Shown: piece after piece, positions 4,325 through 34,877 of the stretch
Layout of the letters: every line of letters starts with the position of its first letter
Numbering within the stretch: the stretch's first letter is position 1
Position numbers and translations under genes: made by a program
The notes under the pieces: generated by a model
What the model was told of the DNA's origin: nothing
The model's input: the letters and a program-made list of their open reading frames with translations, nothing else
The model's database searches: none
Source: Nemertoderma westbladi
Taxonomy: Eukaryota > Animalia > Xenacoelomorpha
Assembly (NCBI GenBank): GCA_032718475.1
Contig: JAUCBJ010007815.1
Coordinates: forward strand, 1 to 34,877
DNA length: 34,877 nt
Reading direction: 5' to 3'

Positions 4325-4625
4325 CGGAAGCCATAAATGTTGGAAGCCATAATCTAAATTAATATCTTCAGCTAAATTGTATGGTTGAGTCATTTTGAAC
4401 GGTCTCTCCATGGAAATTAATTATTTAGCACCATACGATTAAAGTTAATTTGCACAGAAATTAGATATCTGGAATCCATGTACCCCATTCCATTATAGTT
4501 TTTTATTTTTTCAAGTGAATTGCGTTAATAAATGTATTTTTAATTGATTTAAACATAATTAACATTGTAAATTCATACGCTGATTCCATTCTCCCCCATA
4601 GAGCCTAAGGCATGGGAAGGGCAGC

Positions 4626-5757
4626 TGTAAAAGCTTTTGCGGATATAACAAGTAATTTTTCTCCGCAATATACCGTGTAGGTGCTTTAGCGGACATAACA
4701 AGCCATTTTCTGCCGCAATGCGCTTAATACTCTAAAAGACTGGAACTCAGATGACGAAATCTGTCAGCTGATTTACTGTAAACGTGGAACCTCTCTTTGT
4801 TCAGCTCGCTCAGCCAATCAGAGCGATTTTCATTTTATGTTGGACAAGGGCCTATGTAAAACCGCGCAATGCATTACGGTCTTTGTTTACCTTTCTGAGC
4901 GAGAGAACTGCTTGGAAATTCTTCTGTACTTCTGTGTGGAAGTTTCAGACTTTGACCTAAACATCAGAAACATCAGATGGCTTTGATTACAAGAACGTAA
5001 AACTATTAACGCAACGCAGCACACCGCATCACACCGCAAGTCAACATTGCTGCACAGCACATGGAACACTGCATAAGCAACACATACTGACTGTTCACCG
5101 CATTATTTGCTTCTGATATTAATTGGTGTTATGTTAATGTATATTGCTGATATATTTGGAGAATACCGATGAATAATCATAAAACCCCACAATCTTTTTG
5201 ATTACTGAAGGTTAGAGGAACAGGTTTACCGGTAGCAACTGCGACTTACATTATAGTGGTTTTTTTTGTGTGAATTAAATGCTATTTCATAATCCCTACA
5301 TGTGTCAGTTGCGATCCTCCTTATATATGATCAAATTCAGTGATGGTCGGCAGATCAGTGTGAAGTAGTGTGAAGCCGTGTGAAGTAGTGTGAAGGTTAA
5401 TAAGGCATCTCCTAAAGAATGCGCTTTTTACGAAACTCAGTAGCCATCCAGTTGTGATTAGTATAAGTCATAACTCTGTTTTATACTTAAAGCGCCACGG
5501 CCTAAAGGAACTGTTAATATTTCCCCGAAAGTAAATATATTGTCAGAGATTATATATTAACGATCAATCGAATAATACAGTAGGTCTACACTGCAATCAC
5601 TATCAAAGCATCCGAATCCAGTCTCCCTTAACTGTGGGTGAATGGTCGCGCACAGGCTGGCTTCGGCTGATGTAACTTCAGTACATTAAATAATTGATAT
5701 ACAAAAAGACAATTAAAATTGGCAGGTTAAACTGCTAAAGGTCTAAAAGCGCGAACA
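4626..5757 (+). repeat. 5' LTR of element A (1132 bp)
   Basis: Direct repeat of 15168-16391 with about 11 substitutions by eye plus indels; TGT..ACA termini; CCAAT box at 4814-4818. Confidence 0.95.
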
Positions 5758-5769
5758 TTAATAGTTTTA
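5758..5769 (+). other. PBS-position sequence of element A, complementary to its own LTR (4998-5009); no tRNA PBS
   Basis: TTAATAGTTTTA directly follows the LTR terminal ACA and is the exact reverse complement of TAAAACTATTAA at 4998-5009. No TGG start. Confidence 0.75.
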
Positions 5770-7261
5770 AACTCTTGATTGCACGTAGGCAATAAATTCG
5801 AATGTACCGGTCGGACGGTAAACTGTAGGCCTAAATACCTAACCACCCGAACCGGTACTTACCAGTACCCAGTATTATTTCGATTGAGATATATTGTATA
5901 TTGTAGGCTGTTAGGGGATTAGGGATTGATCACCCCTTATTCCTTTGTATGGTTTACTTATTTCTGTCAGTTTTATTTATCTGTAAGTGTGATATTGAGC
6001 AGAAGGCGTGTAAGCCTGCTCAAATTGTACAAATAATTTGTAGGCTGGATTGTTGTCTGGCTGTTGTTAAGTCTGAAGCGATTGCAGTGTGTGTAGAGTG
6101 TATGTCCGATAAAGTACTAGTTAGGAAGGTGGGGGCATCCAGTGTTGTAAGGTAAATCCCCCCCCCCCCCCCCCGAAAGAATAAGTCGTACTACTCGGTT
6201 AGAACGCCTACTAACTAACCATTTCGGAGTCTGCATATACTGTAGTTTATTTAGGCTTGCCAATAGTCTGCCAGCATTTGGTCTGTATTTTGTTTGTGTA
6301 GTCTGCACGGGTAGCGTAATATTTAATATTCGCAACCTACATAACTCCCCAAGTTTATTCCTACAGTAATTGTGCTTGTTACACATACCGTTATAGTTAA
6401 ATTAACCCCGGTACTACATCAGGGCTGCTTGGCGTAGGTAAAGACTGGTGCCTTTATGCTCTAGTCACTCCAGCAGATACCGTGGTTCTTTTAGCTGTAC
6501 AAGTATATTTAACTGCTGGTTATTTGTTGTATAAGTATTTGTACCTAATCTAGGGTTTAGTGTACAGTACTTTCCGAAGGTAATTGGTGTGTAGGCAGTA
6601 TATTTGTGTTGTAAAGTGGTTAATAGGCACGTTAGCTCTGGTTGGCTGCGGTAATTAACTTCTAGGTAAGGACACTCCGGGTACATAACGTAGTACTTAT
6701 AGAGCTGTAGAGCTAAAGACTATAAGTCATCAGACGGTGGTATTTTCTTATCTGGACAACGCAATTTATTTACTACTGCTTAATTATTTTCAAATACCGT
6801 AGTTTCCTGTCCGTTTGTAATAACCAGAAATTCTAACTCCTTGTTAGGCTGGTTTGTAGATTTCCTGCAAAATTACCCTAAAATTTGTACGTGTAACTTT
6901 TGTGTTTATTTAGAGATTGTAATCTCTCACAGTAATTGTATGTAATTTGTAGTAATAAGTAACTTAGTAAAGTAGAATTATTTGTTTTAGTGTCTAACAA
7001 GTAGCACTCCACTGAGAGTGTTCAGCTTCTGTGTAGTGACTCCTTACCAGAAATAATAACATTTATTTCAAACATTGACAAAAACCCTTGTACGGGTATA
7101 TAATATATTATAAATCAACTCAAACCGATTTATAAAATAGTAGGCCTGTTATACATCAATTAGGTCTTAATATCGGTTGGACTACTGCTTAATAACAGTA
7201 ATAAAGTAAAGGAAAGTAACCCTAAAATTCAGAAATTCAGTTATTCTAAAATAATTGACAT

Positions 7262-7653: not shown

Positions 7654-10600
7654 ATGGCTGACACAAAGCAAACTCTGTCAGATAGTCTCCTAGAAAGAAC
7701 AGTCTGCGACTCAGACAGGAGTGCAGAACATCTGAGACCGAAGTCCAAGTCCCCTCCTACTGTAAGAAAGGTCATCCCTTCAAGTCAAGCGGGACCAAGA
7801 GGCAGCTGTTAAACAGCAGCAACACCCGAACCGAGAACTTATTTCCCAGCGGCCCGATAGCTCCAGTAGTTCAGATACTGTAAAGTTGACACCCGAGATC
7901 GGAGCAAAGATGGCAGAAGCGGTTTATTCGGATCCACTTCGCATTCTTCCTGAAGCTGTACTCACTAGGGTATTGATTGCGGTGGAGGAACATCAAATCG
8001 ATTGGGCGAGAAGTAAGCGATCGACCAAGGACAGTTATGCGGGATACACAATAGAGGAACTGAAGTCTATTGTCGAGACGCAATGGAACTTCCCCGGACC
8101 CGGACTCCCGTTTAACTTATCGGAAGCTGCCTGGGAGGACTTATACCAGATGGGAGTGGTAAAGGACACTAGAGATCCAGCTGTGTGGAAGAGGTCGGCA
8201 GCAGGATATGTACAGGGATTCTTCAGCTCTTTGGAGCGACTAGAGGAACACCTGTTTCAACAACTCCAAGGACCTCAAGAGCAGGGAGAGGTGCTTTATC
8301 AAGTTCGAGAACGAATCTTAAGGATCAGACTAATCCTTTTGGCCTTTGAGGAAGCCTCAAAGAGAAGTCAAGATACGTCGTTGCAAGTTGCCGTAAAGAC
8401 TTGGTACCAACGAGTGAGTCTTAAAGTCCAAGGAACGACCCAATGGAAAATTCAGCTAACTGAGCGCGCGACCCATGGAGAATCAACAGACGCTACCTTT
8501 TCTTAGGTGGAAAGCGAAGTTACATCAGATAAACCTCAGAAGAAAGACGCTATTGACATCTATCTGTCGGACTATCAACGATTTATAGGTAACAAAGAGT
8601 TAAGGAGAAGGCTAGCTGGACTTCCCCCTAATAGTGAGGGAGCCAAATTTGTGTTAGACTCCTTAGATGCCGAAATGTTAGCCGCCAATCGAGCTAAATT
8701 TGAGGAAAGAATCCGCATCGTTAGAGTCCAAGAAGAGCAGCTAAAGAAAAAAAACAAATTAAAGACAGAAAGGCAGCAACAGCGGCAGCGGCAGAAGCGA
8801 AAAGAAAAGCGGCAGTGGCAGAGGTAGAAAGAAAAGCGGCAGAGGCAGAAAGAAAAGCGGCAGCTGCAGAAGCGGAAAGAACTGCGGCAGAGGCAGTGGT
8901 AGAAGCAGAACGGAAGGCATCTGAAGAGACAACCCAACTAGTGTTGGAAAATCTTCAAGAGAGGCAAGACTACTTAAATAAACAGATAACAGCTAGTCAG
9001 ATGCAGATGATAAGTCGATCTACTCCGAAGAGACAGGGATTTACAGCATCTGATGAAGGCGATACAACAGATCCTGAAGGCGGAGGAAATAGATCTCGTT
9101 CCAGCAGACGTAGAAGAACACCCCACCGTCAGAAATTGCCTAATTTGCCCCCAGCTGTGAGAAGGCAACTAGCTAGTGTAGACTTAGGTAGTACAGAACC
9201 CACAAACCAAATTATTAGAGTAGAAAGACTCCCTACTATAGTAGATGAGCCTGAAATAATTGGGCCTGTTCTCGAAGCCACCCCTTCTGTGATAGAGACC
9301 CCTGTACTTCCAGAACCTAACTCTAAATTCCCTTTGCACAGTACTAAACTACCTGTGCCCAGTAGAATAGTCCCTGAATTCCCCCCGGTCCTGGACGCCG
9401 AGCAAGACATCAACGATTTGTCGCCCGTCATCCCTCGTCTGCCCGCTACTATGTTGGCGGCTCCCGCTTCGGCGGTAGAGTGGGTGGATGAGCGACGGCG
9501 GGGGATGGATCTCCTGCTTGGACAAAAGGAGGAACATCGGGCACGTTCCTCCCAACAGGTCCGGGAGTTGGAAGGGACTGTTCAGCAGTTAAAGGGAACA
9601 GTATGAGAGGGTAGGTTAGAACTGCAAGAAGTGCAGCAGAGTATCGTGTTAGAACGCGATAAATTAGTAAATATACAAAGGGGTATACCACCACCCCCTG
9701 TAACAATGTGTCAACCTGTTAGGTCTGAAGTATTTCATGCGCAAGGTGTGGAGCCTACATGCATCTATACTGCTAGTGAAGTAGAAACTCCTATAGTAAA
9801 CCCTATTAAGGATAATTATAAACCTGTTGATAATGATATTCCATATAGACCTGATCCTAATCCGAGAAATTTATTTACCGATAACTCGATATTAAATAAT
9901 ATGATGGCCCAAGAAAGTTTTACGAGTCAAATGGCTAGAACCGAAGCCCGTCAAGCGGTAAAGGTGGGAGAGATCGTCAAGTTCAATGGAGATGAGATGA
10001 AATGGTTACCTTTTAATGAATATTATAAAGATAACATACAGAACTCTGTACTATCTAACGGAGAGAAACTTAGATTCCTCATCGAGTGCTTGGAAGGACC
10101 TCCCAAGTTAATGGCGTTATAGTTTATTGGACATCCAGATGGATTAAGACAAGTTTGGGATACACTAAACATGAGGTATGGTAATAGGACTAACATAGCT
10201 AGGTATTTGTATGCGAAATTAATGGCGCCCCAAAAGTTCCTTAGCAGCGGGATTATAGAGTTTTCCGACGAGATTCAGGAGATCTGTAGACAGTTAGACT
10301 GGTTGGGTAAGTCTCATGAATACCAGAATTCTATGGTTGTAGGAGCCCTAGCATCAGCTTTGCCAAAGGGTAGAGTAGGTACTCGCTGGGACAAAAAGGT
10401 TCTCTATTTGATGGACCAACAACATAGAGATCCAACCATGACGGACCTTCTGTCATTCTTAAACCGAGAGGTAAGATTACAACTCCTAAAACAGTCTATT
10501 GAGAAGACTGCTGAAAGTGAGGTAAGTGAAAAACCTGTTTCTAGGAGAAAGGTAACACCAGTGTGTTATACAGACGACGGCGAAAGCCAAACCTCCCACG

Positions 10601-12156
10601 AGGAGAACAGCGGGAAAGACACCGAAAGATCTTATTATGTCAACAAAACTCGGAAAGACGTAAGTAAATCTAAGTCTCGAACCAGTGACAGGAGAGAACA
10701 GGTAACAACAATTCCTCCAACGTCTCCTAAGAGAATGCATGGAAGAAAGCCCGAGGAAAGAACAAGTGTGCACCACACAGCACAGGTTAAAGTAAGTAAC
10801 ATCAAACCCAAATGTGCATTGTGCGATGGGCCCCATCGCTTAAGTGGGTGTGATGAATTCTTGAAGAAATCCCTTAAGGATAGACGTGATGTCATGTGGG
10901 ATAAGCGGTTGTGTTATAATTGCCTCAGGCGAGGACACCAACGGCGGACCGGTTACTCAGATGCTAGGTGTGCTAAGTGCGGCGCGAAACATCATATCTT
11001 GCTGCACACAGAATTTGAAAGAACCCGCACGAGTCATGTAAGTGAGCCCGAACTACATGTCCAATTCAGTGATGTGAACGACACTGACCACAGCTCTGAG
11101 ATGGAAGGATTTTACATGGACGAATTCTCCGACGAAAACGAATCCTGTTATATGATAAACACCGCAGTGTATCGAGCGCTTACGTATGAGACTGACACCG
11201 ATAATGAAGCGCAACAGACTATTCCGGACCGGCAACCATCTTGGAAAGCGCCAACTTCCAACGTCGGAATCCGGGAATTCCCAGTGGTGCAGCTGAGAGT
11301 CCATGGGTTAGGTAAGAGTTTTATAGTAAACGCCCTCCTTGACTCCGGCAGCACAGGAACATTCATCGACAAAGAACTAGCCGAAGACATCTTTGCTGGA
11401 CAACCCAAGTTCCGAACTAAGTTGAACCTTTCAGGAATTATGCAGTTTTGGATATCCACAGTAGCTGCAGACTACTATGTAGGCGCATTGTCCACCCCCC
11501 AGGATGAACTAGGAGAACATAGCATAAGGTCAGTAAAATTGGTGGCGATAAAGAACTTTGCTACCAGCCAAGTGGAACCTTATAACTGGGATGAAGATCA
11601 TTTTACCCAGCAGCATGATATCCCTAGATTCAACACCGACTACCCAGGGGTACAAATATTGATCGGCCAAAATGCGCATGAGGCGCTAGAGACATTAGAA
11701 AAACGGCCTGCTCGACCGCAACCATTACAAACATATGCTGGAAGAACGAGAGTAGATTGGTACTTCACTGGACCTTCCCGTAGAACACTGATGGAAAGGC
11801 TCCCTCGAGAAAGGGTACATCAGGTGAGCGAATGGGAAGAAGAAATCAGTGAGGGAGAAACCACAACTGAGGGAACACCATACTCCTCAGATAACGACGA
11901 TATTAACCAGCCATACGATGAGGAAAATACAATTGATCTCCTCGCCGAAAGCCGGACTTGGTGTTTCCATCATCACTATTCCAGGACGAAGAAGAAACCT
12001 GGAATTGTATTCGAAACACAACAACTCAATCGCCCAGTTGGTCGTTTATGTTTACTGGAAAGAGACCGAGAACTGTCCAGAGACTGTGGAAGGCAAGATA
12101 CTCTTCCCACGACCACCTCCCTAATCCAACAAACATCTAGGGACTCCCCAACGTAA
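7654..12156 (+). pseudogene. gag-pro: Disrupted BEL/Pao gag-protease polyprotein of element A with Pol C-terminal tail
   Basis: ATG at 7654 (MADTKQTLSDSLLE, matching MSDTKQNLSDSLLD in B). DUF1759-like Gag (KFNGDEMKWLPF..LSNGEKLRFLIECLEG), triple zinc knuckle (CALCDGPH / CYNCLRRGH / CAKCGAKHHILLH), aspartic protease ALLDSGS, tail RPVGRLCLLE. Lesions relative to B: ~60-bp deletion near 7780, stops at 8504-8506, 9604-9606 and 10120-10122, frameshift near 8755. Confidence 0.9.
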
Positions 12157-15089: not shown

Positions 15090-15159
15090 CTGTTTAGAGT
15101 ATTTTTATATTTTAGAAACTGTGATTTTTTATATTTTATAGAATTAAATCCCATTTTCT

Positions 15160-15167
15160 GGGAGCGG
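15160..15167 (+). other. Short polypurine-tract-like sequence, element A
   Basis: GGGAGCGG abuts the TGT of the 3' LTR; identical in B (29302-29309) although the adjacent LTR sequence differs. Confidence 0.7.
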
Positions 15168-16391
15168 TGTAAAAGCTTTTGCGGATATAACAAGTCATTT
15201 TTCTCCGCAATATACCGTGTAGGTGTTTTAGCGGACATAACAAGCCATTTTCTCCGCAATGTACCGTGTAGGTGCTTTAGCGGACATAACAAGCCATTTT
15301 CTGCCGCAATGCGCTTAATACTCTAAAAGACTGGAACTCAGATGACGAAATCTGTCAGCTGATTTACTGTAAATGTGGAACCTCTCTTTGTTCAGCTCGC
15401 TCAGCCAATCAGAGCGATTTTCATTTTATGTTGGACAAGGGCCTATGTAAAACCGTGCAATGCATTACGGTCTTTGTTTACCTTTCTGAGCGAGAGAACT
15501 GCTTGGAAATTCTTCTGTACTTCTGTGTGGAAGTTTCAGACTTTGACCTAAACATCAGAAACATCAGATGGCTTTGATTACAAGAACGTAGCATTAACGC
15601 AACACATTAACGTTAATTACATTAACATAAACATTAATTAGCACATTAACGCAACGCAGCACACCGCATCACACCGCAAGTCAACATTGCTGCACATGGA
15701 ACACTGCATAAGCAACACATACTGACTGTTCACCGCATTATTTGCTTCTGTTATTAATTGGTGTTATGTTAATGTATATTGCTGATATATTTGGAGAATA
15801 CCGATGAATAATCATAAAACCCCACAATCTTCTTGATTACTGAAGGTTAGAGGAACAGGTTTACCGGTAGCAACTGCGACTTTCATTATAGTGGTTTTTT
15901 TGTGTGAATTAAATGCTATTTCATAATCCCTACATGTGTCAGTTGCGATCCTCCTTATATATGATCAAATTCAGTGACGGTCGGCAGATCATTGTGAAGT
16001 AGTGTGAAGCCGTGTGAAGTAGTGTGAAGGTTAATAAAGCATCTCCTAAAGAATGCGCTTTTTACGAAACTCAGTAGCCATCCAGTTGTGATTAGTATAA
16101 GTCATAACTCTGTTTTATACTTAAAGCGCCACGTCCTAAAGGAACTGTTAATATTTCCCCGAAAGTAAATATATTGTCAGAGATTATATATTAACGATCA
16201 ATCGAATAATACAGTAGGTCTACACTGCAATCACTATCAAAGCATCCGAATCCAGTCTCCCTTAACTGTGGGTGAATGGTCGCGCACAGGCTGGCTTCGG
16301 CTGATGTAACTTCAGTAGATTAAATAATTGATATACAAAAAGACAATTAAAATTGGCAGGTTAAACTGCTAAAGGTCTAAAAGCGCGAACA
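15168..16391 (+). repeat. 3' LTR of element A (1224 bp)
   Basis: Matches 4626-5757. Has one extra ~49-bp U3 repeat unit and a 54-bp CATTAAC-rich patch (15591-15644). Confidence 0.95.
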
Positions 16392-16480
16392 GCGGCCGTG
16401 CGTAATAATATTTCTTAAAGTTGTACATTATATGGCAAGCTAAAGTTATTGACCAAGCCAGTGCCTAGGCTAGCACACAA

Positions 16481-17340
16481 GGAAGTAGTATTTTGTGCTT
16501 TACAGTTTTTAGTCTTACACTAGTAGGTTTAATTATAAAGGGCATATATCCTTTAACTGACATACCGGTACTGACATACCGATCAAACTCATGGAATCAC
16601 TGCTGACTGATGATACATGCTGACTGCTGAAACATTGCAAACTCATAACAATCAGTGTTTTCATTGTTGTTTTATACTGCTATTTACCGTCAGTTCTTCA
16701 TAATATGGTTGACGAATAATTATATTTGGAATAACGATAAATAACCCCGAAACCCAATATTCTTGATATACCGAAGGTAAGAGAGAAGGGTTACAGATAA
16801 ACGATTGTGACTTATGTTAAAGTGGTTTGAAGTGAATCTAATGTTATTTGATAGACCCTACATGAGTCAGTCTGTGTTCCTTTTATATGTGACTAAAATC
16901 AGTGAAGATTGGCAGATTAGTGTGCAGTATTGTGCAGCATTGTGTATGAGTGAGTCTGTTAAAGAAGCAATTCCTAAAGAATGCGCCATATATGTGAATT
17001 ATAATTAAGCCATATCGTTGTGAGTAGTTTAAGTCATAACTCTGTTTATATAGATAAAGCGCCACGTCCTAAAGGAACTGTTAATATTCCCGAAGGTGAA
17101 TAATATTGTCAGAGATTATATAATACTGTCAGTCGAATAATACATTAGGCTTACATAGCAATAAAATTAAACCGTCGAACCCAATCTCCCGGGAATATCC
17201 AGCGGGTGAATGGTCGCGCACGGATTGGTTTCGACTAGTGTAGTGAATCAAATACTTGTCATAGACTAAAAACTGATTTAATATCTAGAAGACATCTTAA
17301 TTTGGTGGGTTAAACTGCCAAAAGTCTGAAAGCGCGAACA
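16481..17340 (+). repeat. 5' LTR of element B, lacking the first ~405 bp
   Basis: Nearly identical to the 3' LTR (about 2 substitutions seen); ends GCGCGAACA. Confidence 0.93.
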
Positions 17341-17352
17341 TTAAAGGATATA
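17341..17352 (+). other. PBS-position sequence of element B, complementary to its own LTR (16545-16556); no tRNA PBS
   Basis: TTAAAGGATATA is the exact reverse complement of TATATCCTTTAA at 16545-16556 (also at 29776-29787). Confidence 0.75.
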
Positions 17353-17663
17353 GCTTCTTTATTGCAGTAAGCAATAAAGTTGAAAGTACCGGTCAACCGG
17401 TACATCTGTAGGTCAGTAGGCCCAACTGCCAGAACCGGTACCAGTAGGCCTGACTACCTAACCACCCGGACCGGTACCTACAGCAGTACAGGTACAGCAG
17501 TATTATTCGATTTTGATTATTATATACCAGTAGGCCTTAATAATTAATCAGGGACTGCAGCCCTGGTTTTTTATTGAGATTTTTACTTATTTCTGTCAAG
17601 TTTTATTTGTTTGTAGGCCAGTATTGAACAGAAGGCGTGTAAACCTGATCAGATTGTACAGAC

Positions 17664-18230: not shown

Positions 18231-20734
18231 TTATTCAGAGTTTATGCGATTATTCGCAACATTCAAGTCCCCAAGTTTGTTCCTACAGTAATTGTGTTTG
18301 TTATACATACCGCTATAGTTAAATTAACCTCGGTACTACACGGGCTGCTTGGCGTAGGTAAAGACTGGTGATTTTGTGCATCGGTCACTCCAGCAGATGC
18401 CGTGGTTCTTTTAGCTGTTCAAGTATATTTAATTACTGATTATCTGTTGTACAAGTACTCGTACCTAATTTAGGGTTTAGTGTACAGTGCTTTCCGAGAA
18501 TAATTAGTGTAGGCATTATATTTGTGTTGTAAAGTGGTTGATAGGCACATTCGATTAGCTCTATTAACTTCTAGGTAGGAACACTCCGTGATACATAACG
18601 TAGAACCTATAGCGATACGGCTATAGGTCGTCAGGCGGTGGTATTTTCCTATCTAGACAACGCAGTGTATTTACTACTACTTATTATTTCAAATACCGTA
18701 GTACCCTGTCCGTTGTAATAATCAGTTTTCTAACCCTTTGTTAGGCTGGTTTGTAGACTTCTTGTAAAATTACCCTAAAAATTCGTATTTTGTGTTTTTT
18801 GTAAATTTTTGCATTTATTTAGAGATTGTAATCTCACCCGAATTGTACGTAATTTGTAGTATTAAGTAACTTAGGTAAATTAGAATTATTTGTTTTAGTG
18901 TCCTATACGTAACACTTCACTGAAAGCGCACCGCTTTGTGTAGTGATTACTCCCCAGAAATAATAACATTTATTTCAACATTGACAAAACCCATTAAAAC
19001 GGGTATATATATATTATAAATCAAATCTAACGATTTATAAATAGTAGGCCTACCATACAACCATTAGGTCTCAATATCAGTTGGATTACTGCTTAAATAA
19101 CGGTAATAAAGTAAGTTAAAGTAACCAAGTAACCCTAAAGTTCAGAAATTCAATTATTCCAAAATAATTGATATACCGGTATTTACGATAGGCCTATTAT
19201 CTTATTTCTATAAATCTAGGCTGAAATTATACCGGTACTTGTAATTAATTCTATTCCAGAATTATATATACTACAAACTGTAAGCTGTATACCGGTATTC
19301 CGATAGGCCTATTATATATTTATATATATTTGTGCTAAAATTATACCGGTATTCTGTGATAAACCTAGTCTGTAATAATACTTATATAGTTATATATACT
19401 ATAAGTATACCGGTATTCTAATATATTATATATATATTACGCTACACTGAGTAGCAGTAACGGTAATTAATTACTAGGCTAGCAGTTCATACTGAGTTAC
19501 TAGACTTGCTTAGACTGTAATATAGCAGTAGGCATTCAACTGTACATACCTAGTCATGTCTGATACTAAGCAGAACCTGTCAGACAGTTTATTAGATGTA
19601 ACTATCTGCAACTCAGATCGCGACGTACAACCGTCTGGTCGTAAATCCAGTTCACCTCCCACTGTGAGGAAGGTCATCCCTCCAGTAGTAATAACAGAAC
19701 CTAGGCTGGTCCAACATCGTAGGTCTATCATAGGCACTCGAGCTCAGGTCAAGCGGGACCAAAAGGCAGCGGAACAGCAACAACCCACTAGTCAAGAACT
19801 TATTCCTCAGCGGCCCAGCAGCTCCAGTAGTGAGGATACTGTAGAGCTGACACCCGAGAGCGGAGCAGAGATGACGGATGCGGTTTATACGGATCCCCTT
19901 CTCATCCTTCCTGCAGCCGTGCTCGCTGAGTTATTGATCGCGGTAGAAGAACACCAGATCGATTGGGCGAGAAGTCAACGGTCAACTAGAGATAGTCTAC
20001 GCGGGATACACTAGTGAAGAACTGAAGTCTATTGTCGAGTCGCAATGGAACTTCCCCGGACCCGGACTCCCGTTTGATTTATCAGAAGCTGCCTGGGAAG
20101 ACATACACCGGATGGGAGTAGCCAAGGAAACCATCGATCCAGCTGTATGGAAGAGGTCCGCAGCCGGATACGCACAGGGATTCTTCAGCTCTATGGAGCG
20201 AGTAGAGAGACAACTGTTTCAACAATCTCAAGGACCTCAAGAGCAGGGATCGCTGCTTTATCAAGTTAGAGAAAGAGTTCTGCGGATTAGGCTAATCTTA
20301 TCCGCCTTTGAGGAGGCTTCTAAAAGAAGACAAGACACGTCGTTGCAAGTTGCCGTAAAGACTTGGTTTCAAAGAGTGAATCTCCAGGTTCGAGGAACTG
20401 CTCAGTGGAAAGCTCAGCTAGAGGAGCGATCAACCCATGGAGAATCAACAGACGCTACTTTTTCCCAAGTGGAAAGTGAAGCGACGGCAGAGAAACCGCA
20501 TAAGAGGGATGCCATTGACATCTATCTGTCAGACTATCAGCGTTTCGTAGGTGATGAAGAGTTGCGGAGAAGACTAGATGGGCTTAGCCCTAATAGTGAA
20601 GGAGCCCAGCGTGTGTTGGATGCGATTGATGTGGATAGGTTAGCGGCGAACCAAGCTAAATTCGATGAACAACTCCGCATCGCTAGAGAAAAGGAAGAAC
20701 AAGTAAGGAAAAAACGTATAGAAGACAGAAAGAT

Positions 20735-20942
20735 AGCAGCAGTGGCAGAGGCAGAAAGAAAAGCGGCAGCGGCAGAGGCAAAAGCGGCAGCGGCAGCGGC
20801 AAAAGCGGCAGCAGTGGCGGAAGCAGAACGAAAAGCGACAGTGGCGGAAGCAGAACGAAAAGCGGCAGCGTCAGAAGCAAAAGCGGCAGCCGCAGAGGCA
20901 AAAGCGGCAGCAGTGGCGGAAGTAGAACGAAAAGCGGCTGAA
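20735..20942 (+). repeat. Coding tandem repeats specifying an Ala/Glu/Lys-rich helical segment
   Basis: Repeated AAVAEAERK / AAAAEAK units; a shorter version is in A (~8770-8920). Confidence 0.85.
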
Positions 20943-21991
20943 GAGATCATCCAACTGGAGTTGGAAAATCTTCAAGAGAAGCAAGACGACTTTAGTAAAC
21001 AGTTAGCAGCTAGTAATATGCAGATGATGAGTCGATCTACTCCCAAAAGACAAGGGTATACATCATCTGAGGAAGGCGATACCACCGACACTGAAGGCGG
21101 AAGAAATCGATCTCGCCTAAGCAGACGTAAAAGAACATTCCACCGGCAGAAATTGCCTGATTTGCCTCCAGCTGTTAGAAGGCAACTAAATAACACCAAA
21201 ATAGGTAGTACAGAACCCACAGACCAAATGATTACAATAGAAAGACTCCCTACTATAGTAGATGAGCCTGAAATAATTAGGCCTGTTCTTGAAATCACCC
21301 CTTCGGTGATAGACACACCTGTGCTCCCTGAAGCCACTTCTAAATTCCCTCTACATAGCACTAAGCTACCTGTGCCCAGTAGAACTGCCCAGGAGACAGT
21401 TCAGGTCCTGGACCCCGAGCGAAATATTCACAATTTGTCGCCCGTTGTCCCTCGTCCGCCCGCTACAACGTTGGCGACTCCCGCTTCGGCGGTCGAATGG
21501 GTGGACGAGAGACGGCGGGGGATGGATATCCTGCTCGGACAGATGCAGGAGACTGTCCAGCAGTTCAAGGGCACAGTAAGGGAAAGTAGGCTAGAGTTGC
21601 AAGAAGTGCAGCAAAGTATCGCGCTAGAACGCGATAAATTAGTAAATACTCAAAAAGGTATACCACCACCCTCTGTAACAATGTGTCAACCTGTTAGGTC
21701 TGAAGTATCGCATGCGCAAGGTGTGGAGCCTACACGCATTTATACTGCTAGCGAAGTAGAAACTCCTATAGTGAACCCTATTAAGGGTAATTATAGACCT
21801 GTTGATAATGATATTCCCTATAGACCTGATCATAATCCGAGAAATTTATATACCGATAACTCGATATTAAATAGCACGATGGCCCAAGAAAGTTTTACGC
21901 GTCAAATGGCTAGAACCGAAGCCCGGCAAGCGGTAAAGGTTGGAGAGATCGTCAAGTTCAATGGAGATGAGATGAAATGGTTACCTTTTAA

Positions 21992-23708
21992 CCCTTTCCG
22001 GCCTGAATTAATTTAATTTAGGAAAAAAAATTGGTTGGTCTTGTTAATGGGTTAATTATACACCAAATAATAATTTTCGATGAAAAAATTTTCAAAAAAT
22101 TATTTCCAATGTTGTTTTTTTTATTGTATACAAAAGTATACGTTAGGTATATGAAACATGTTCCCAATGTATACTTTTGTATACAAACCCTAGATTGTAA
22201 GTACTTACTTACATACATACATCGTATAGTAAGTATATTCTCTCTCTCTCTCTATATATATAGAATAAACAAAGCATGCAACGAGCAGGCAATTTTAATT
22301 AAAAAAATAAAAAGCTGTCAATATTGTGAAATTTGCCAAAATGCCAAAATTTTATAATTTTGTGTGTTTTCACAACACACGTTGTTTAAAAGCAACACAG
22401 TGCGACAAAAAACTTAAAATGAAGAATTATACAGTGAAGGTTTTTTTCTGTCAGTTTTGTTCAAGTTTGAAAAAAACAGTATCGACTGACTATTTTCAAT
22501 TGTTTGTATGTCTATCTGCCCTGCCTGTATACTGTGGGTGTACAACATCTACTCCCCAACGGTGGCTGAACCACATCTACTCCCAAATGGTGGCTGAAAC
22601 ACATCTACTCCCAAGGCCCAATGGTAAACATCTACTCCATATGGTGGCTACACCACATCTACTCCCCAATGGTCAACATTTACTCCATTGGTGGCTACAC
22701 CACATCTACTCATCAATGGTCAGCATCTACTCCACTATGGTGGCTGCATCACATCTACTCATCAATGGTCAGCATCTACTCCCTACTGGTGGCTGCACCA
22801 CATCTACTCATCAATGGTGGGTGCGCCAGATTTACTCCCCAATGGTGACTGCGCCACATCTACTCCCCATTAGTGGCTGCATCACATCTACTCCCAAGGC
22901 CCAATGGTGACTGCGCCACATCTACTCCCCAATAGTGGCTGCATCACATCTACTCCCAAGGCCCAATGGTCAACATATACTCCCCTATGGTGGCTACGCC
23001 ACATCTACTCCACAATGGAGGCTGTTCCACATCTACTCTCCAATGGTGACTGCACCACATCTATCCACAATGGTGGCTGCATCACCTCTACTACCCTATG
23101 GTCAACATCTACTCCCCATGGTGGCTGCGCCACATCTACACCCCAATGGTCACACATCGACTCCCCTATGGTGGCTGCACCACATCTAGGCGTACACCCC
23201 AATGGTGGATGCACCACATCACCCAAACGGTGGCTGAATCATATCTACTCCCCAACGGTGCTGCACCACATCTACTCCACAACTGTGGCTGCACCACTTC
23301 TACTCCCCAACTTTATAAACCTAACGTAGACAAATGTATACAGTGGTTTATCAATAACACTACCGGCCTACATGTACTATAAAGTTTATCCTGGAAATAT
23401 TATTATCTCATTGGACAATCCATCTTTGGAATACCCAATCAAAATTCTCAATATCGCTTTGCCAAAGCGGTTAAATAACCATCTTTCCTATACCAGGTAG
23501 TCATCATGCCAATACCTGAAAACACGGCATCTAAAATCGTTCATTGAAGCCTTCTACTACAATTATCCAATCAGAATCGGTAATTTATAAATAAAGGAAG
23601 TGTGATAGTGCCACAATTGGATGAAACCAACTATAATTAGTTAAAATTATGCAATCCGTAGTGAAATAAATTCAGTGTATACAAAAATATACAGTCGGCC
23701 GGAAAGGG
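21992..23708. mobile_element. Non-autonomous piggyBac-like DNA transposon (1717 bp)
   Basis: TTAA duplicated at 21988-21991 and 23709-23712. 12-bp TIR CCCTTTCCGGCC / GGCCGGAAAGGG. Empty site visible in A (CCTTTTAATGAA at ~10009-10020). No transposase. Confidence 0.93.
22545..23310. repeat. Degenerate minisatellite inside the piggyBac-like element
   Basis: Mixed ~28-bp (TGGTGGCTGCACCACATCTACTCCCCAA) and ~20-22-bp (TGGTCAACATCTACTCC..) units. Confidence 0.92.
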
Positions 23709-26700
23709 TTAATGAATATTACAAAGATAACATACAGAACTCTGTACTATCTAATGGAGAAAAACTTAGATACCTCATCGAGTGCTTGGAAGGATCTCCC
23801 AAGTTAATGGCATTAAAGTTTATTGGACATCCAGACGGATTAAGACAAGTTTGGGATACACTAAACATCAGGTATGGTAATAGGAATAATATCGCTGGGT
23901 ACTTGTATGCAAAGTTAGTAGCGCCCCGAAAGTTTATTAGTAGCGGAATTATCGAGTTTTCCGATGAGATCCAGGAGATCTGCAGACAATTAGATTGGCT
24001 AGGTAAGTCTCATGAGTATCAGAACACTATGGTTATTAGAGCAGTGGCTTCTACTTTACCTAAAGGTGGAGTAGGTACACGCTGGGATAAGAAAGTGTTA
24101 TATATGATGGAACAACAACGGCGAGACCCTACCATGGCTGATCTCATGTCATTCCTAGATGGAGAAGTGAAATTACAGCTCCTGAAACAGTCCAGAGAGA
24201 AGACAGCGGAAAGTAAGGTAAGTGAGAAACCCGTTTCTAGGAGAAGGGTAATACCAGTATGTTATACCGACGACGGTGAAAGCCAAACTTCTCAAGGAGA
24301 GGACAGCGGGAAAGACACTGACAGATCTTATGTCAATAAAATGCCTAAAGATCAGGTAAGTAAATCCAAGTCTCGACCCAATGACAGAAGGGAACCGGTA
24401 CAAAAAAACCCTCCTACGTCTCCTAAAAGAATTCAGGTGAGAAAGCCCGAGGAAAGAACAAGTGTGCACCACACAGCACATGTTAAAGTAAGTAACATCA
24501 AGCCCAAATGTGTGCTGTGCGACGGGCCCCACCGTTTAAATGCGTGTGATAAATTCCTGAGGAAATCACTAAAGGATAGACGTGAAGTCATGTGGGATAA
24601 GCGGTTGTGTTATAATTGCCTCAGACGAGGACACCAACGGCGAACCTGTAACTCCGACGCAAGGTGTGCAAAGTGCGGCGCAAAACATCATATCTTGTTG
24701 CACACGGAATTCGAACGAAACAGCCCGAGTCAGGTAAGTGAGTCCGAACTACATGTCCAATTCAGTGATATGAACGACACTGATCAATCTGAGATGGAAG
24801 GATTCTATACGGACGAGTTCTCCGACCAAAACGAATCCTGTTACCTAATAAACACCACCGCAGTGTATCGAGCACTCGTGTATGAGAAAGACACAGACAG
24901 CGACCTTACCTTAACTACTTCCGATCAACAACCATCTTGGAAAGCGTCAACTTCCAATATAGGAATCCGAGAATTTCCTGTAGTCCAGTTACGGGTCCAC
25001 GGACCTCAGAAGAGCTATATAGTGAACGCCCTCCTGGACTCCGGTAGCACAGGAACATTCATCGATAGGGAACTAGCCGAAGTCATCTTTGCTGGACAAC
25101 CCAAGTTCCGAACCAAGCTAAACATGTCAGGGATCATGCAGGTTTGGAATTCTACTGTAGCTGCCGACTATTATATAGGTGAGTTGTCCACCCCACAGGA
25201 TAAACTAGGAGAATACAGTATAAGGTCAGTGAAAATGGTGGCTATAAAGAACTTCGCTACTACTCAAGCAGACCTTTATAATTGGGACGAGGATGAGAGC
25301 ATCCAACATCTTAACATACCTCGATTCCAGACTGATTATCCTGGAGTGCAAATACTCATCGGCCAAAACGCGCATGAGGCGCTGGAGACATTAGAGAAAC
25401 GACCTGCTCAACCGCAACCACTTCAGCCCTATGCGGTAAGAACTAGAGTAGGTTGGTACCTTACTGGACCTTCCCGTAGAACGCTCAGAGAAAGACTGCT
25501 TCAAGATCGCGTCTGCCAGCGGAGTAAATGGGAAGATGATACTAGTGAGGGAGACGACCCAACTGAGGGAACACCATACTCCTCAGATAATGACGATATT
25601 AGCTCCAATTTAGATCAATGGAGATATTGTCCCAAGAAGTTTAATCCAACGGACATCGCTTCCAGAGGAGTAACTCCTCAAGAACTGACAGATACTACAG
25701 ACCGGTTAGGTGAACCCGACTTCCTGAGTAAGGAGGATGAATGGCCTCCCCATCTTACTCCGACTGAGATTAGACCAGCCAAGGGAGCGGAGAAAGTTAA
25801 ACCTAAAACCCGGGCGGGTGGAGCGGAGTTATTTGAACCCGGGATAGATCTGTCGGTATTACATGTTGCCAGGGACGACGCCGTGGATCTGGGCCTCCCC
25901 TCCGCGAGTGGATCCTTCATGAAGATCAGAGAGAGCGATTGGAGCTCTGGAACATCAGACGTCTCGCAGGGACTCTCACCTCTCCTGCAGAGAGCGACGG
26001 ACCACTATAGCTCCTGGAATCGGCTTTGTGACGCCGTCATACACTTTGAGCGATGTTTCTATCGTCACTATTCCAGGACGAAGAGGAAACCTGGAATTGT
26101 ATTCAGGATGCAGCGACTCAATCACCCAGTCGGTCGTTTGTGTTTATCGGAAGGGAATGGAGGACTCTCCGGAAACTGTGGAAGGCAAGATTCTCTTCCC
26201 ACGACCACCTCCCTAATCCTTCAAACATCTAGGGACTCCATAACGTAACAACATATGGAGTGGGTGTGTGACTCTATTATTTTATATTATTTTATTATTT
26301 TTATATTTCTGTATGTATTACTATGTAATTTTATTATAATCGTTTTCTTTAATTTTATTCAGTAGAATGTTATTTTAGCGATTATTTAGTAGATTAGTGC
26401 AATATATATTCGCGTTTATTACTTAATTACATATATATTATATTTAATGCGACGGCAAGAAATAATTCTTTTTCTCTTTCCTTACTGTCCGTATTACATT
26501 ACAAATACGTAACTACAGTAAGATGAAATGTCCGTACTTATTAAAGTACAATAAAGCCACTACTATATTTAAGTATTATTGGTAGGCAGAGTATTAGGAA
26601 TGCAAAGTTCAGATCCTCGTGTCTCGGCTAAACCAAGCTCTGGGTAGACCTTGGAAACGACTTGCCTCTTCACACTGACATTGCTTCGTGCGATATTGCT

Positions 26701-29231: not shown

Positions 29232-30352
29232 CTGTTTAGAGTATCTTTATGTTTTAGAAACTGTGATTTTTATATTTTATAGACTGAAAATCCCATTTTC
29301 TGGGAGCGGTGTAAAGGCCTTTGCTGAATTGCCCCGTTATTTTTATTATCTTTTACATTAAAATACTCTGTAGTTGATTTAATAAGTGTAAGAGACCGTA
29401 TTATTGCTGTATCGGTGTTTTTAGAGGATCTAAGACCTATTTCCTCCGTATGTGTACTGTGAAAGGCATATTTTATGATTCTATGGCAATTCGTGACGCA
29501 AAGGGGTGATAGCTACTCTTGAACAGTAGTTACTATGACTACGGTTAACAGCTGACATTCATACGTGTTGATTTCCTTTGTTCTACGGCGTCTCTCAGTT
29601 CAGTCAGCCAATTAGAGCGTTTTTGTGGCTCCTTGTACAGAAAATTTCCGAGAAATGACGCAATGCCTATGTGCAGTGTTTACATTCAGTCCTGAGCCAA
29701 AGAAAGAACGGCTTGGAAGTATTTTGTGCTTTACAGTTTTTAGTCTTACACTAGTAGGTTTAATTATAAAGGGCATATATCCTTTAACTGACATACCGGT
29801 ACTAACATACCGATCAAACTCATGGAATCACTGCTGACTGATGATACATGCTGACTGCTGAAACATTGCAAACTCATAACAATCAGTGTTTTCATTGTTG
29901 TTTTATACTGCTATTTACCGTCAGTTCTTCATAATATGGTTGACGAATAATTATATTTGGAATAACGATAAATAACCCCGAAACCCAATATTCTTGATAT
30001 ACCGAAGGTAAGAGAGAAGGGTTACAGATAAACGATTGTGACTTATGTTAAAGTGGTTTGAAGTGAATCTAATGTTATTTGATAGACCCTACATGAGTCA
30101 GTCTGTGTTCCTTTTATATGTGACTAAAATCAGTGAAGATTGGCAGATTAGTGTGCAGTATTGTGCAGCATTGTGTATGAGTGAGTCTGTTAAAGAAGCA
30201 ATTCCTAAAGAATGCGCCATATATGTGAATTATAATTAAGCCATATCGTTGTGAGTAGTTTAAGTCATAACTCTGTTTATATAGATAAAGCGCCACGTCC
30301 TAAAGGAACTGTTAATATTCCCGAAGGTGAATAATATTGTCAGAGATTATAT

Positions 30353-32381
30353 GGGTCGTTCTCACAAAAAGTGGCCAAACTTTTATGTCAAAATGTCCAT
30401 GCATTCGCACGGTTATATTTCCAAACGACACAGATTTAACCCCATGAACCTATATACCAATCGGAAGAGCGGAAATCTGCTCATATTTCAGCAAATTTTC
30501 AACAGATTCCATTCACAACCTAGAGAATGACACCATTTCAAATATCGAAAATGCATGTTTTTTGAAATGTCACATTGAATTATTTTGAAATATTTGGCTT
30601 CTGAGCTAAAGCAATGAAAGCAAAGGTTCCACATACCATACATCAAAATAAAGCAAATTTAATGCTCTTTCACATACTATTGGTGGTTTTCAACCGAAGC
30701 TACTCACATTTTATATATTTACTATTTACTAACAATTAATTACGCCGTCACTAGGATTTTGTCCACCATGTAACGCTCGTTTTTATGACATGGTTTTTTT
30801 ATATTTATTCACAACATCTCCAAGTGAGATATTTCTAAACGGCGATTTATTTAGCTATCAGCAGGTAAAAAAATTATAAGAATTCGTTCATTAGAACTCG
30901 AGTGTTGTGCGAAAACGTAAATCTACATAAAATACCGTCATTAGGAATGTCCTCAATGTAACGCTACTTTGAATAGCGATAACTTTTGCTTTACTAATCA
31001 TATCGACACCATTGAGGGCTCATATGAAAGAGCAATCGCAGATCTATCGAATCACATATTTGATTTTAATATAGTTTTAAAACAGACTATAGTCAACGCC
31101 ATGCTAATGAAAAATGTCTTCAATGTCCATCATGTAACGCATGTAACGCTGTCACAATCAATAGCGTTACACTTGAGACATGTCCATCATGTAACGTAGT
31201 TGGGCCTGAACATACCTAGCAGTACGAGTGGCGTTTCTTTTTACAAATTAGGCAGTCAGGGTCAAATTAACAATAGTCGATGGTTTCTGGTTTTCAGTAT
31301 TTAGTATAAACTACTGTAGTAGTAATATTATCTGTTGTAGTCTGTATTACCTAGTACCTAAAGGGTTTAGGAAAAGCTCATGAGTTTGTTTACCTTCTTT
31401 ATTTCGGTTCTAAAACAGTACTTCTTAATTGTCATGCAATTACAATTGTCAAACGGAATTAAGCGTGTTTTGTCCGGTAAGAACTTCTCGATTGAATTTA
31501 TAGTGATGGCGTTACACGTGAAGGACTTAGAGATTAAGTTAGTGATGGCGTTACACGTGAAGGACTTAGAGATTAAGTTAGTGATGGGATGGCGTTACAC
31601 GTGAAGGACATAGAGATTAAGTTAGTGATGGGATGGCGTTACACGTGAAGGACTTAGAGATTAAGTTAGTGATGGCGTTACACGTGAAGAAGGACTTAGT
31701 TACACGTGAAGGACTTAGAGATTACGTTAGTGATGGGATGGCGTTACACGTGGAGGACTTAGTTACACGTGAAGGACTTAGAGATTACGTTAGTGATGGG
31801 ATGGCGTTACACGTGAAGGACTTAGAGATTGCGTTAGTGATGGTTTTAAGGATTCCGTTAACTATTTTGTACAATTAGTGTTACAATAGTATGTATATTC
31901 ATATTGTATGGATACAATAATACAAACTAAATAATTTGCTGATTTGAAAAATATTATTTTCAGCCATTGGGTTGATAAATAAATCCGTAAAAAACCCGTA
32001 TAAATATAAAATAAATCCGTACATGACATTAAAGTGACTGTTGAATTTCTGGTATATATTTTAAATGTCAAATCCTGGATACTGATTGGCTAACAAGTAG
32101 CGTTACATTCGAGACAACGAGTTAGATTGTGGGCGTTTTGTGAAATGAAGGTTGCTGATTGGCTAACAAGTAGCGTTACACCAGGGACAAAATGTTACAT
32201 TGTGGACATTAATTTTTCGCGAATAAAACCTTACGACTTTACTAAAAAAAACGGCCCACTAGTGTATTCGAAATCGCCTCATCGAGAGCTCTCGAAATAT
32301 GTATATATTTATATGGTTTTGACAAAAAAAAATTTGACAATTTTTTCTCAAAATTTTGGCCACTTTTTGTGAGAACAACCC
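30353..32381. mobile_element. Non-autonomous TIR DNA transposon (2029 bp), possibly Sola-like
   Basis: 27-bp TIR GGGTCGTTCTCACAAAAAGTGGCCAAA / TTTGGCCACTTTTTGTGAGAACAACCC (1 mismatch). ATAT duplicated (30349-30352, 32382-32385). Empty site in the 5' LTR at ~17117-17120. Superfamily uncertain. Confidence 0.9.
31501..31843. repeat. 39-44-bp minisatellite inside the TIR element
   Basis: Units of TAGTGATGG(GATGG)CGTTACACGTGAAGGACTTAGAGATTAAGT with partial internal duplications. Confidence 0.93.
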
Positions 32382-32604
32382 ATATAATACTGTCAGTCGA
32401 ATAATACATTAGGCTTACATAGCAATAAAATTAAACCGTCGAACCCAATCTCCCGGGAATATCCAGCGGGTGAATGGTCGCGCACGGATTGGTTTCGACT
32501 AGTGTAGTGAATCAAATACTTGTCATAGACTAAAAACTGATTTAATATCTAGAAGACATCTTAATTTGGTGGGTTAAACTGCCAAAAGTCTGAAAGTGCG
32601 AACA

Positions 32605-32938
32605 CGTTGTGTTTAGTATAAGTCATAACTCTGTTTTATATACTTAAAAGCGCCACGTCCTAAAGGAACTGTTAATATTTCCCCGAAAGTGAATAATATT
32701 GTCAGAAATTATATAGTAACGATCAATCGAATAATACAGTAGGTCTGCACCGCAATAACTTTCAAAGCACCCGAATCCAGTCTCCCTTAACAGTGGGTGA
32801 ATGATCGCGCATAGGACTGGCTTCGGCTAATGTTACTTCATGTGCATTAAATAATTGTTATAGGCTAAAGTCGATTTGTAAACAAGAGGACAACTAAAAT
32901 TGGCAGGTTAAACTGCTAAAGGTCTGAAAGCGCGAACA
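32605..32938 (+). repeat. 3' portion of a third LTR of the same family (A-like)
   Basis: Aligns to 5451-5757 with moderate divergence and ends GCGCGAACA. It is followed by LINE sequence rather than an internal leader. Confidence 0.88.
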
Positions 32939-34577: not shown

Positions 34578-34580
34578 TTC

Positions 34581-34877
34581 GTGGGGACTTCGCGCAGCAC
34601 GTAGTCGGCAAGCCTTGGCATACGGTTCATATAGAGCAAATGAGGCATGTCTAGTTTGGACCCCATATCCCATGCTATAAATGTATTCATTCGATATACA
34701 ATCATATGTTAATCCGCTAGGTGGTGTCAAATTGTTATTCTGCAATTTCGTACTTACCAGTGCAGCACTGTACAGCAGTACCGTACCGGTAGGCCTATGT
34801 CATTACTTCTGAGTCTCTAGCGGATCCCCAATTAAATGTCTTAACTTTTCAATTTCGTAAAAGATAGACTTCATGAT
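34581..34877. mobile_element. Hairpin-ended repeat related to 776-1068, opposite orientation, truncating the LINE
   Basis: GTGGGGACTTCGCGCAGCACGTAGTCGGCAAGCCTT matches the reverse complement of 1032-1068. CTCF-like CCGCTAGGTGGTG at 34714-34726. Far end not determined. Confidence 0.5.

Follow-up and report, generated by a model that had tools for sequence, protein, structure and literature searches.

The window analyzed here is a 34,877-nt stretch of DNA from Nemertoderma westbladi, which holds two tandem LTR elements (A and B) and one LTR fragment (C); the coordinates of their features are collected in Table 1. The 5' and 3' LTRs of A differ by 12 substitutions in 1126 aligned bases, and A is flanked by a 5-bp target duplication with one mismatch (4621-4625 and 16392-16396), while that of B is unreadable owing to the truncation of its 5' LTR. 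Matches to DUF1759, zinc knuckles and an aspartic protease were found in the ORFs of both elements, and nine of nine homologues found have DUF1759 or Pao peptidase A17 domains. The ORFs show the Bel/Pao arrangement, in which a Gag carrying DUF1759 and zinc knuckles precedes an aspartic protease, and the LTR hallmarks of this group are also present (TG..CA ends, a 5-bp target duplication in A, and a purine tract). Full-length relatives align to A and B in the gag-protease region and in a short stretch after the RNase H domain only. A and B thus share with Belpaoviridae (Bel/Pao, Semotivirus) the DUF1759 Gag domain, zinc knuckles, DSG protease, 5-bp target duplication and TG..CA LTRs of 1.1-1.2 kb, and Pao peptidase A17, RT and integrase domains occur in their nearest proteins; they differ in having no tRNA primer-binding site (PBS) and in that RT, most of RNase H and integrase were detected in neither copy. 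Since Pol is represented by a short post-RNase H remnant only, A and B are non-autonomous Bel/Pao elements.

Table 1. Coordinates of the features of elements A and B and fragment C in the window
Feature	Position	Strand	Remarks
Element A 5' LTR	4626..5757	+	ends TGT...ACA
CCAAT-box-like motif	4812..4826	+	common to A and B (29606 in B)
Tether U, 5' strand	4970..4976	+	partner 5667-5673; in B 16517-16523/17235-17241
Self-primer tract of A	4998..5009	+	exact PBS complement; predicted cut after 5009
Candidate helix V	5091..5099	+	partner 5637-5645; in B 16680-16688/17205-17213; overlaps outer part of pseudoknot helix
Most conserved LTR segment	5461..5580	+	zero covariation
Duplex T (U5-leader), 5' strand	5584..5599	+	partner 5776-5790; in B 17149-17165/17358-17372
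Stem P	5612..5666	+	loop with CCC/GGG-closed variable segment and pseudoknot strand
Loop strand of stem P	5641..5651	+	complements LTR end; core 5646-5651/5749-5754; predicted H-type pseudoknot; invariant
Tether U, 3' strand	5667..5673	+	directly after stem P
Terminal hairpin	5719..5738	+	helix 3 of the sequence-only reading
LTR end	5749..5757	+	first template bases; 3' strand of predicted pseudoknot helix
PBS of A	5758..5769	+	not tRNA-like
Duplex T, 3' strand	5776..5790	+	alternative: local hairpin with following bases
Element A gag-protease region	7766..12156	+	DUF1759, zinc knuckles, DSG protease; interrupted by stops and frameshifts
Purine-rich tract	15150..15167	+	precedes 3' LTR of A; same tract in B, before 29310
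Element A 3' LTR	15168..16391	+	short repeats where 5' LTR has 12-nt primer tract
Element B 5' LTR	16487..17340	+	5' end truncated; primer 16545-16556, stem P 17175-17187/17222-17234
PBS of B and 3' strand of duplex T	17341..17372	+	PBS 17341-17352; duplex T strand 17358-17372
Element B gag-protease ORF	23645..26248	+	plus short remnant matching region past Pao RNase H domain
Element B 3' LTR	29310..32604	+	two parts, 29310-30352 and 32382-32604, inverted-repeat insertion between
Fragment C	32606..32938	+	3' third of A-like LTR

The gag-protease region has been kept in both elements (7766-12156 and 19532-26248, with 83% DNA identity), and both lack RT and integrase at the same position, a pattern suggestive of an old non-autonomous lineage. 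The gag region of B is broken at 22500-23310 by a tandem array with a 28-nt unit, and the 2-kb insertion inside its 3' LTR (30353-32381) has inverted ends of about 30-49 nt, an ATAT duplication and a 39-44 nt tandem array. Downstream of fragment C lies a LINE fragment with an RT domain (32939-34610), and a 30-nt inverted match was observed between positions 1039-1068 and 34581-34610. No tRNA genes were found within the window. A strong splice-donor-like site is located in the R-U5 region of B at 16775-16781, with a weaker version in A near 5209-5215, and a spliced gag mRNA could possibly arise from it.

According to the ICTV profile, Belpaoviridae use an 18-nt PBS for tRNA-Arg or tRNA-Gly, and the replication of Bel/Pao elements is described as 'poorly understood' (PMC8742986). 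No PBS for either of these tRNAs was found in A or B, and TGG is absent within 25 nt of the PBS in both, with the TGG-type PBS of 8 of the 17 related loci examined serving as the positive control. The PBS of each element is complementary to a tract of its own LTR located 750-780 nt upstream. All 12 positions pair in A and in B (12/12 each), four compensatory changes separate the two duplexes, and the chance expectation of a 12-nt match is about 0.0005 per LTR. With its flanks included, the cognate duplex reaches -15.3 and -19.9 kcal/mol, compared with -3.6 and -4.2 kcal/mol for the crossed combinations, and pairing resumes upstream beyond a small internal loop. Part of this covariation may come from the copying of the primer into DNA, a process that is reportedly treated in a paper on Tf1; such copying would imply self-priming anyway. 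Contigs from four public runs were compared with both LTRs, the variants being unlinked; among the variants listed, a change in the PBS of A at 5762 is accompanied by no change of its partner. The 12-nt primer tract is missing from the 3' LTR of A, where positions 15592-15649 hold short repeats resembling the LTR end and the first PBS bases; outside the primer-tract region the two LTRs of A are 99% alike. Contigs of the family also break or diverge directly past 5010.

An earlier reading of this DNA had proposed a large, covarying and apparently pseudoknotted RNA structure for 5236-5759, made of six helices. All 14 pairs of coordinates that it quoted (14/14) agree with the sequence. To assess its helices, all in-register helices common to A and B were collected and compared with 200 alignments whose columns had been shuffled within conservation classes, which preserves single-base but not dinucleotide composition. 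Because the comparison comprises two independent lineages (A and B) and a partial third (C), no formal covariation statistics are given. The stem from which the proposal started (stem P) is real and extends to 5612-5624/5654-5666, with two compensatory and two G.U-consistent changes between A and B. It is the best helix common to the two elements (-18.5 kcal/mol), and none of the 200 shuffles contained a helix with at least two compensatory changes at -12 kcal/mol or below. The best shuffled helix reached -16 kcal/mol in 7/200 cases and the second best in 0/200. The latter value applies to the helix between the loop of stem P and the LTR end, which at -16.6 kcal/mol is the second best common helix. 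This helix is present as proposed and identical in A and B, but it shows zero A/B changes, so that the covariation claimed for the structure does not extend to it. When taken alone, it was equalled by 2/30 and 1/30 shuffles, and the corresponding figure for a tRNA-primed LTR (L070) was also 2/30. The strands follow one another as 5612-5624, an 18-nt loop, 5643-5651, 2 nt, 5654-5666, about 82 nt and 5749-5757, which is a sterically ordinary H-type pseudoknot layout with a 2-nt linker. The evidence for this predicted pseudoknot is conservation by itself, and the LTR end is constrained by integration anyway; the outer pairs of the helix and the primer also compete for the two leading PBS bases. 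A few contigs near 5627 (loose ends in runs X4 and X5) hint at a changed base in the pseudoknot strand. The proposed terminal hairpin stood up well: it has 7 bp and three consistent changes, a local hairpin this good was found in 0/100 shuffles, and two variants in family contigs convert its G.U pairs to Watson-Crick pairs.

When the scan for shared helices was widened to 4945-5870, three additional helices (T, U and V) were obtained. Duplex T starts 6 nt past the PBS and joins the leader to U5; it has 14 bp in each element, with two compensatory changes and one consistent change, and was matched by 0/150 shuffles, compared with 19/60 for a control leader segment. Its cognate energies (-18.2 and -16.0 kcal/mol) are well below those of the crossed strands (-10.1 and -12.4 kcal/mol), and a variant of A (5585 T>C) preserves it. 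Tether U, with 7 bp and two compensatory changes, was equalled by 6/150 shuffles and is placed 21 nt upstream of the primer in both A and B; its 3' strand in fragment C agrees with a variant of A at 4974 (C>T), the two being unlinked. Helix V (9 bp, two consistent changes) is within chance, since a comparable helix at -11 kcal/mol or below occurred in 19% of 100 shuffles.

The six-helix proposal fared worse toward its 5' end. Its fourth helix had been said to change from one set of paired hexamers in A to another in B, but in a MAFFT alignment the hexamers of B are 3 nt out of register with those of A, and in the register of A, B pairs at 5/6 positions, three of them through G.U, with 0 compensatory changes. 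The two pairings of the fifth helix, one of which (GACTTA/TAAGTC) lies at 5243-5248/5464-5469, are indeed conserved; as evidence for a fold they carry no weight, because they are invariant and their energies fall within the null range, as does the energy of helix 4. The predicted pair probability of helix 5 in A is 0.00, and helix 4 and both pairings of helix 5 are incompatible with a local hairpin (5451-5457/5468-5474) favoured by consensus folds. At the sixth helix (5517-5522/5533-5538), a local A+T hairpin is possible in all copies, but the claimed change hinges on gap placement. The stability of 5236-5770 as a whole is not unusual, with z-scores of -1.5 (A) and -2.2 (B). Since helices 4 and 5 are uninformative or null, the 5' part of the proposed structure is unsupported; its 3' part holds. 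The supported extent is 5584-5790 plus tethers at 4970-5009, not all of 5236-5759. As far as sequence comparison goes, this is a real, selected RNA structure, of smaller extent and different build than that of the sequence-only reading. That reading had also posited a selected fold that brings the 5' end to the PBS; a sense-strand fold of this kind is backed, mostly by duplex T, tether U and the primer duplex, none of them among its six helices, but over a lesser extent than claimed.

Taken together, nine modelled helices with 66 pairs contain 10 compensatory and 8 one-sided changes and 0 broken pairs, the helices having been picked from the same two sequences. In a five-row alignment, 161/161 countable cells of duplex T, stem P, the pseudoknot helix and the terminal hairpin pair, compared with 26-38% for slid partners; pairs changed on both sides number 4/40, which was equalled by 65/500 shuffles. 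These sliding and shuffle controls favour the structure because it was derived from the same sequences. G.U accounts for 10 cells in the 66 pairs of the two sequences, where the opposite strand would read A.C, and this strand-specific usage points to a sense RNA rather than DNA. Of 20 variants listed for B, 13 lie in the unpaired linker 17262-17299 and 7 in modelled helices; three of the latter convert G.U to Watson-Crick pairs, one falls on a stem mismatch, two introduce the letter of A or C and would need a partner change, and one breaks a pair. At 17233, a G>A variant with a share of about 4% in X1 disrupts a pair of stem P unless the partner is changed. It is highly improbable that most of these are chance helices in an A+T-rich LTR, with conservation reflecting DNA-level signals and priming by an unrecognised host RNA. 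Such a reading could draw on the 199 helices of at least 5 bp that are common to A and B, on the null-range behaviour of helices 4-6 and on the weak whole-region z-scores, but it is opposed by the four compensatory changes within a perfect 12-bp primer duplex, by the performance of stem P, duplex T and the terminal hairpin against their nulls, and by the strand-specific use of G.U.

The closest known parallel is Tf1. In Tf1, the transcript's first 11 bases are described as pairing with the PBS, with RNase H cutting between bases 11 and 12 (PMC7175516), and a three-duplex pretzel is required, whose outer duplexes join sequences adjacent to the PBS to LTR sequence downstream of the primer (PMC10085805). 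A and B resemble Tf1, Tf2 and Tj1 in having a non-tRNA PBS paired with a tract of 11-12 nt in their own 5' LTR (PMC10085805, PMC7175516, PMC4600332). Both also have a leader-LTR duplex past the PBS. The counterpart of the upstream duplex, which joins the LTR end to the LTR, is complementary beyond column shuffles but invariant, so that of the two further PBS-adjacent duplexes described for Tf1, the one between loop and LTR end is here a prediction. Several differences were also observed. The host element is a Bel/Pao element and not a Tf1/sushi chromovirus of the Ty3/gypsy group: the proteins are of Bel/Pao type, and not a Ty3/gypsy polyprotein with a chromodomain integrase. About 750 nt separate the primer from the PBS, and the primer apparently does not form the extreme 5' end, because pairing continues upstream; the duplex upstream of the PBS arises from the loop of a covarying stem, giving a predicted pseudoknot; and there is an extra tether upstream of the primer.

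On these grounds, we consider it likely (probability roughly 0.7) that the covarying 3' part of the LTR and the leader fold into a Tf1-like self-priming scaffold in an RT-less Bel/Pao lineage. The motif at 4812-4826 is presumably comparable to a CCAAT box, and judging from its position transcription would start about 100 nt upstream of the primer, and in any case no less than 28 nt upstream of it. On the two sides of the PBS, duplex T and the loop-to-LTR-end helix would take the places that the outer duplexes have in the Tf1 pretzel. Tether U would hold the 5' leader on the core, and the fold would keep the primer on the PBS. Cutting after UUAA (5009) would be done in trans, by the RNase H of an autonomous Bel/Pao partner, because the copies A and B have none, and the RT of that partner would elongate the 3'-OH across the LTR end. 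A primer of at least 40 nt, longer than that of Tf1, is implied by tether U and the upstream pairing, consistent with the CCAAT-like box at 4812. Exact predictions follow, namely cutting at 5009/5010, two points at which a long primer is held, and the named helices.

Within the same self-priming system, the helices might instead form a switch with two alternations, one of stem P and the loop-to-LTR-end helix and one of duplex T and a hairpin after the PBS, which would separate translated from priming-ready RNA. Nested folding prefers stem P and duplex T in A, whereas in B both are near 0, the loop-to-LTR-end helix is preferred and the local post-PBS hairpin, a perfect 9-bp helix, reaches 0.97-0.99; helix V moreover overlaps the pseudoknot strand. 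However, nested algorithms cannot form pseudoknots, so mutual exclusion would be expected regardless, the linkers of the H-type layout (18, 2 and about 82 nt) permit both helices, and the changed base of A tracks its U5 partner at the cost of a mismatch in the local hairpin. We therefore regard a switch as unlikely.

The most conserved part of the LTR lies outside the supported structure. In 5461-5580, 106/117 positions are identical between A and B, including 32/33 in 5489-5521, compared with 1562/1887 in gag, and no tested pairing accounts for this conservation. A long helix (5405-5424/5492-5513) is predicted in the 3' LTR of A and in B, and it is within the null (31/100 shuffles). The word CCTAAAG occurs twice in the conserved core of both elements (5411-5417 and 5501-5507), where it could form a repeated protein-binding loop. 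Our guess is that a packaging or Gag-binding signal is the likeliest role of the core. As an account of the structure as a whole, with proximity to the PBS being incidental, a packaging or dimerisation signal for Gag is improbable. The conservation of 5461-5580 above that of gag would fit it, as would the repeated CCTAAAG and several GCGC words able to pair between molecules, and the elements keep gag and presumably must be packaged with the RT of a partner; a pseudoknot of Ty1, which is reportedly the subject of one paper, may be set beside it. But duplex T follows the PBS at a distance of 6 nt, the pairing of the loop strand reaches up to the PBS itself, and tether U keeps a constant 21-nt gap to the primer. 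A packaging role of the 5' core may exist alongside the self-priming scaffold.

Whether the structure helps to cleave out the primer had been raised as a question, with the remark that it could not be matched to hammerhead, HDV or group I consensus. This was borne out: no such core is common to A and B. No ribozyme, group II included, was matched in an Rfam search to E 1, in which two chance-level matches lay outside the LTRs, and none of the cores of hammerhead, HDV, twister, pistol, hairpin and group I ribozymes is common to both elements. A word at 5543-5554 resembles the group I R element; a group I reading was rejected in view of the missing S element and of the lack of a conserved P7 partner for 5543-5554. 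An HDV reading was also rejected, as neither the catalytic C nor the nested double pseudoknot of this motif is present in the GGGTGAATGG stretch. Small nucleolytic ribozymes leave a 2',3'-cyclic phosphate, which cannot be extended by RT. It is quite improbable that the core (taken here as 5405-5580) and the pseudoknot constitute a new ribozyme class in which the PBS serves as internal guide and the RNA is cut after UUAA without protein to leave a 3'-OH. The 32/33 invariant bases lacking an explanatory pairing, the R-like word and a PBS-guided duplex at the cut site, likened to P1, speak for such an activity; against it stand the missing Rfam match, known catalytic core and P7 partner, the absence of a U.G at the predicted cut site, the unsuitable ends produced by the small nucleolytic types, and the sufficiency of RNase H in Tf1. 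If it were true, an LTR retroelement would produce its own RT primer with neither tRNA nor protein. The invariant core may concretely be put forward as a packaging signal or, with lower probability, as a catalytic RNA.

Self-priming has been described for Tf1/sushi, Tcn1 and TAR elements (PMC6317226, PMC4600332, PMC3601003, PMC5341516). For the plant Tcn1 chromoviruses and the TAR (Houba/Osr-1) Ty1/copia elements, it was predicted from PBS complementarity alone; these belong to other superfamilies, and no comparable fold is described in the accessible text (PMC6317226). Retrozymes are likewise non-autonomous LTR elements with a conserved RNA structure inside the LTR, but theirs has a hammerhead core, which is missing here, and its cleavage serves circularisation, whereas A and B keep gag-protease. 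The accessible text of six papers (PMC3118150, PMC554778, PMC6238403, PMC8556966, PMC5443660, PMC11042837) yielded no passage on Bel/Pao priming, and neither self-priming nor a pretzel in Bel/Pao was the subject of any paper found in a literature search whose scope mostly excluded subscription journals and Repbase and excluded supplements, so an earlier mention in print is possible. If the pretzel-like fold of A and B is true, tRNA-free priming with the three-duplex logic of Tf1 would have had a separate origin in a third animal LTR superfamily, the earlier self-priming superfamilies being Ty3/gypsy and Ty1/copia.

Relatives were sought in a broad Bel/Pao scan that gave 91 loci, of which 90 were used (L030 was excluded from all analyses). 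The fold was not detected in these 90 other loci by blastn of the LTRs or by a covariance model of stem P built from three copies, which matched only the five copies in the window (best E value among the other loci, 1.3). The architecture of the A/B fold has so far been observed in the A/B LTR family only. Searches with DNA patterns of the conserved core gave no matches in viral, metagenome or genome contigs, and protein-guided scanning of viral contigs was likewise negative. Identity to the nearest proteins is mostly about 25-35%, so the collections searched contain no close relative together with its context. Among 17 loci whose LTR ends were inspected, 8 have a TGG-type PBS, 4 a non-tRNA PBS, and 5 received neither assignment. 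A first tree (28 rows) was built without the non-tRNA loci and left B unplaced. In a second, quick tree of the knuckle-protease region (32 rows, without element A, L085 and P0001), B groups with L086, L087, L089, P0002 and P0003 (SH-aLRT 97), although on a long branch (2.83); B thus groups with loci that likewise have no tRNA PBS, and self-priming may be a trait of this clade.

In L086, L087 and L089, pairing of the non-tRNA PBS spans an apparent splice junction inside the LTR. The first 8 PBS bases pair with the bases following an AG acceptor inside the LTR (L086:1330-1885, L087:1355-1793, L089:2070-3227), and the next ones with the exon end preceding a GT(A/G)AGT donor, which gives an apparent splice-built primer. 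Related loci with such a primer imply that the clade may hold several solutions. L085 has, within a 320-nt LTR, a contiguous 11-nt complement to its non-tRNA PBS (6301-6311/6415-6425). For A and B, a splice-built primer is unnecessary because the 12-mer is contiguous, and spliceosomal cleavage at the primer end was rejected since no GT follows UUAA in either element. Finally, L082-L091 are Bel/Pao retrotransposons, some of them complete with LTRs, in contigs filed under bacterial genomes, a filing that is likely due to host contamination of the bins.
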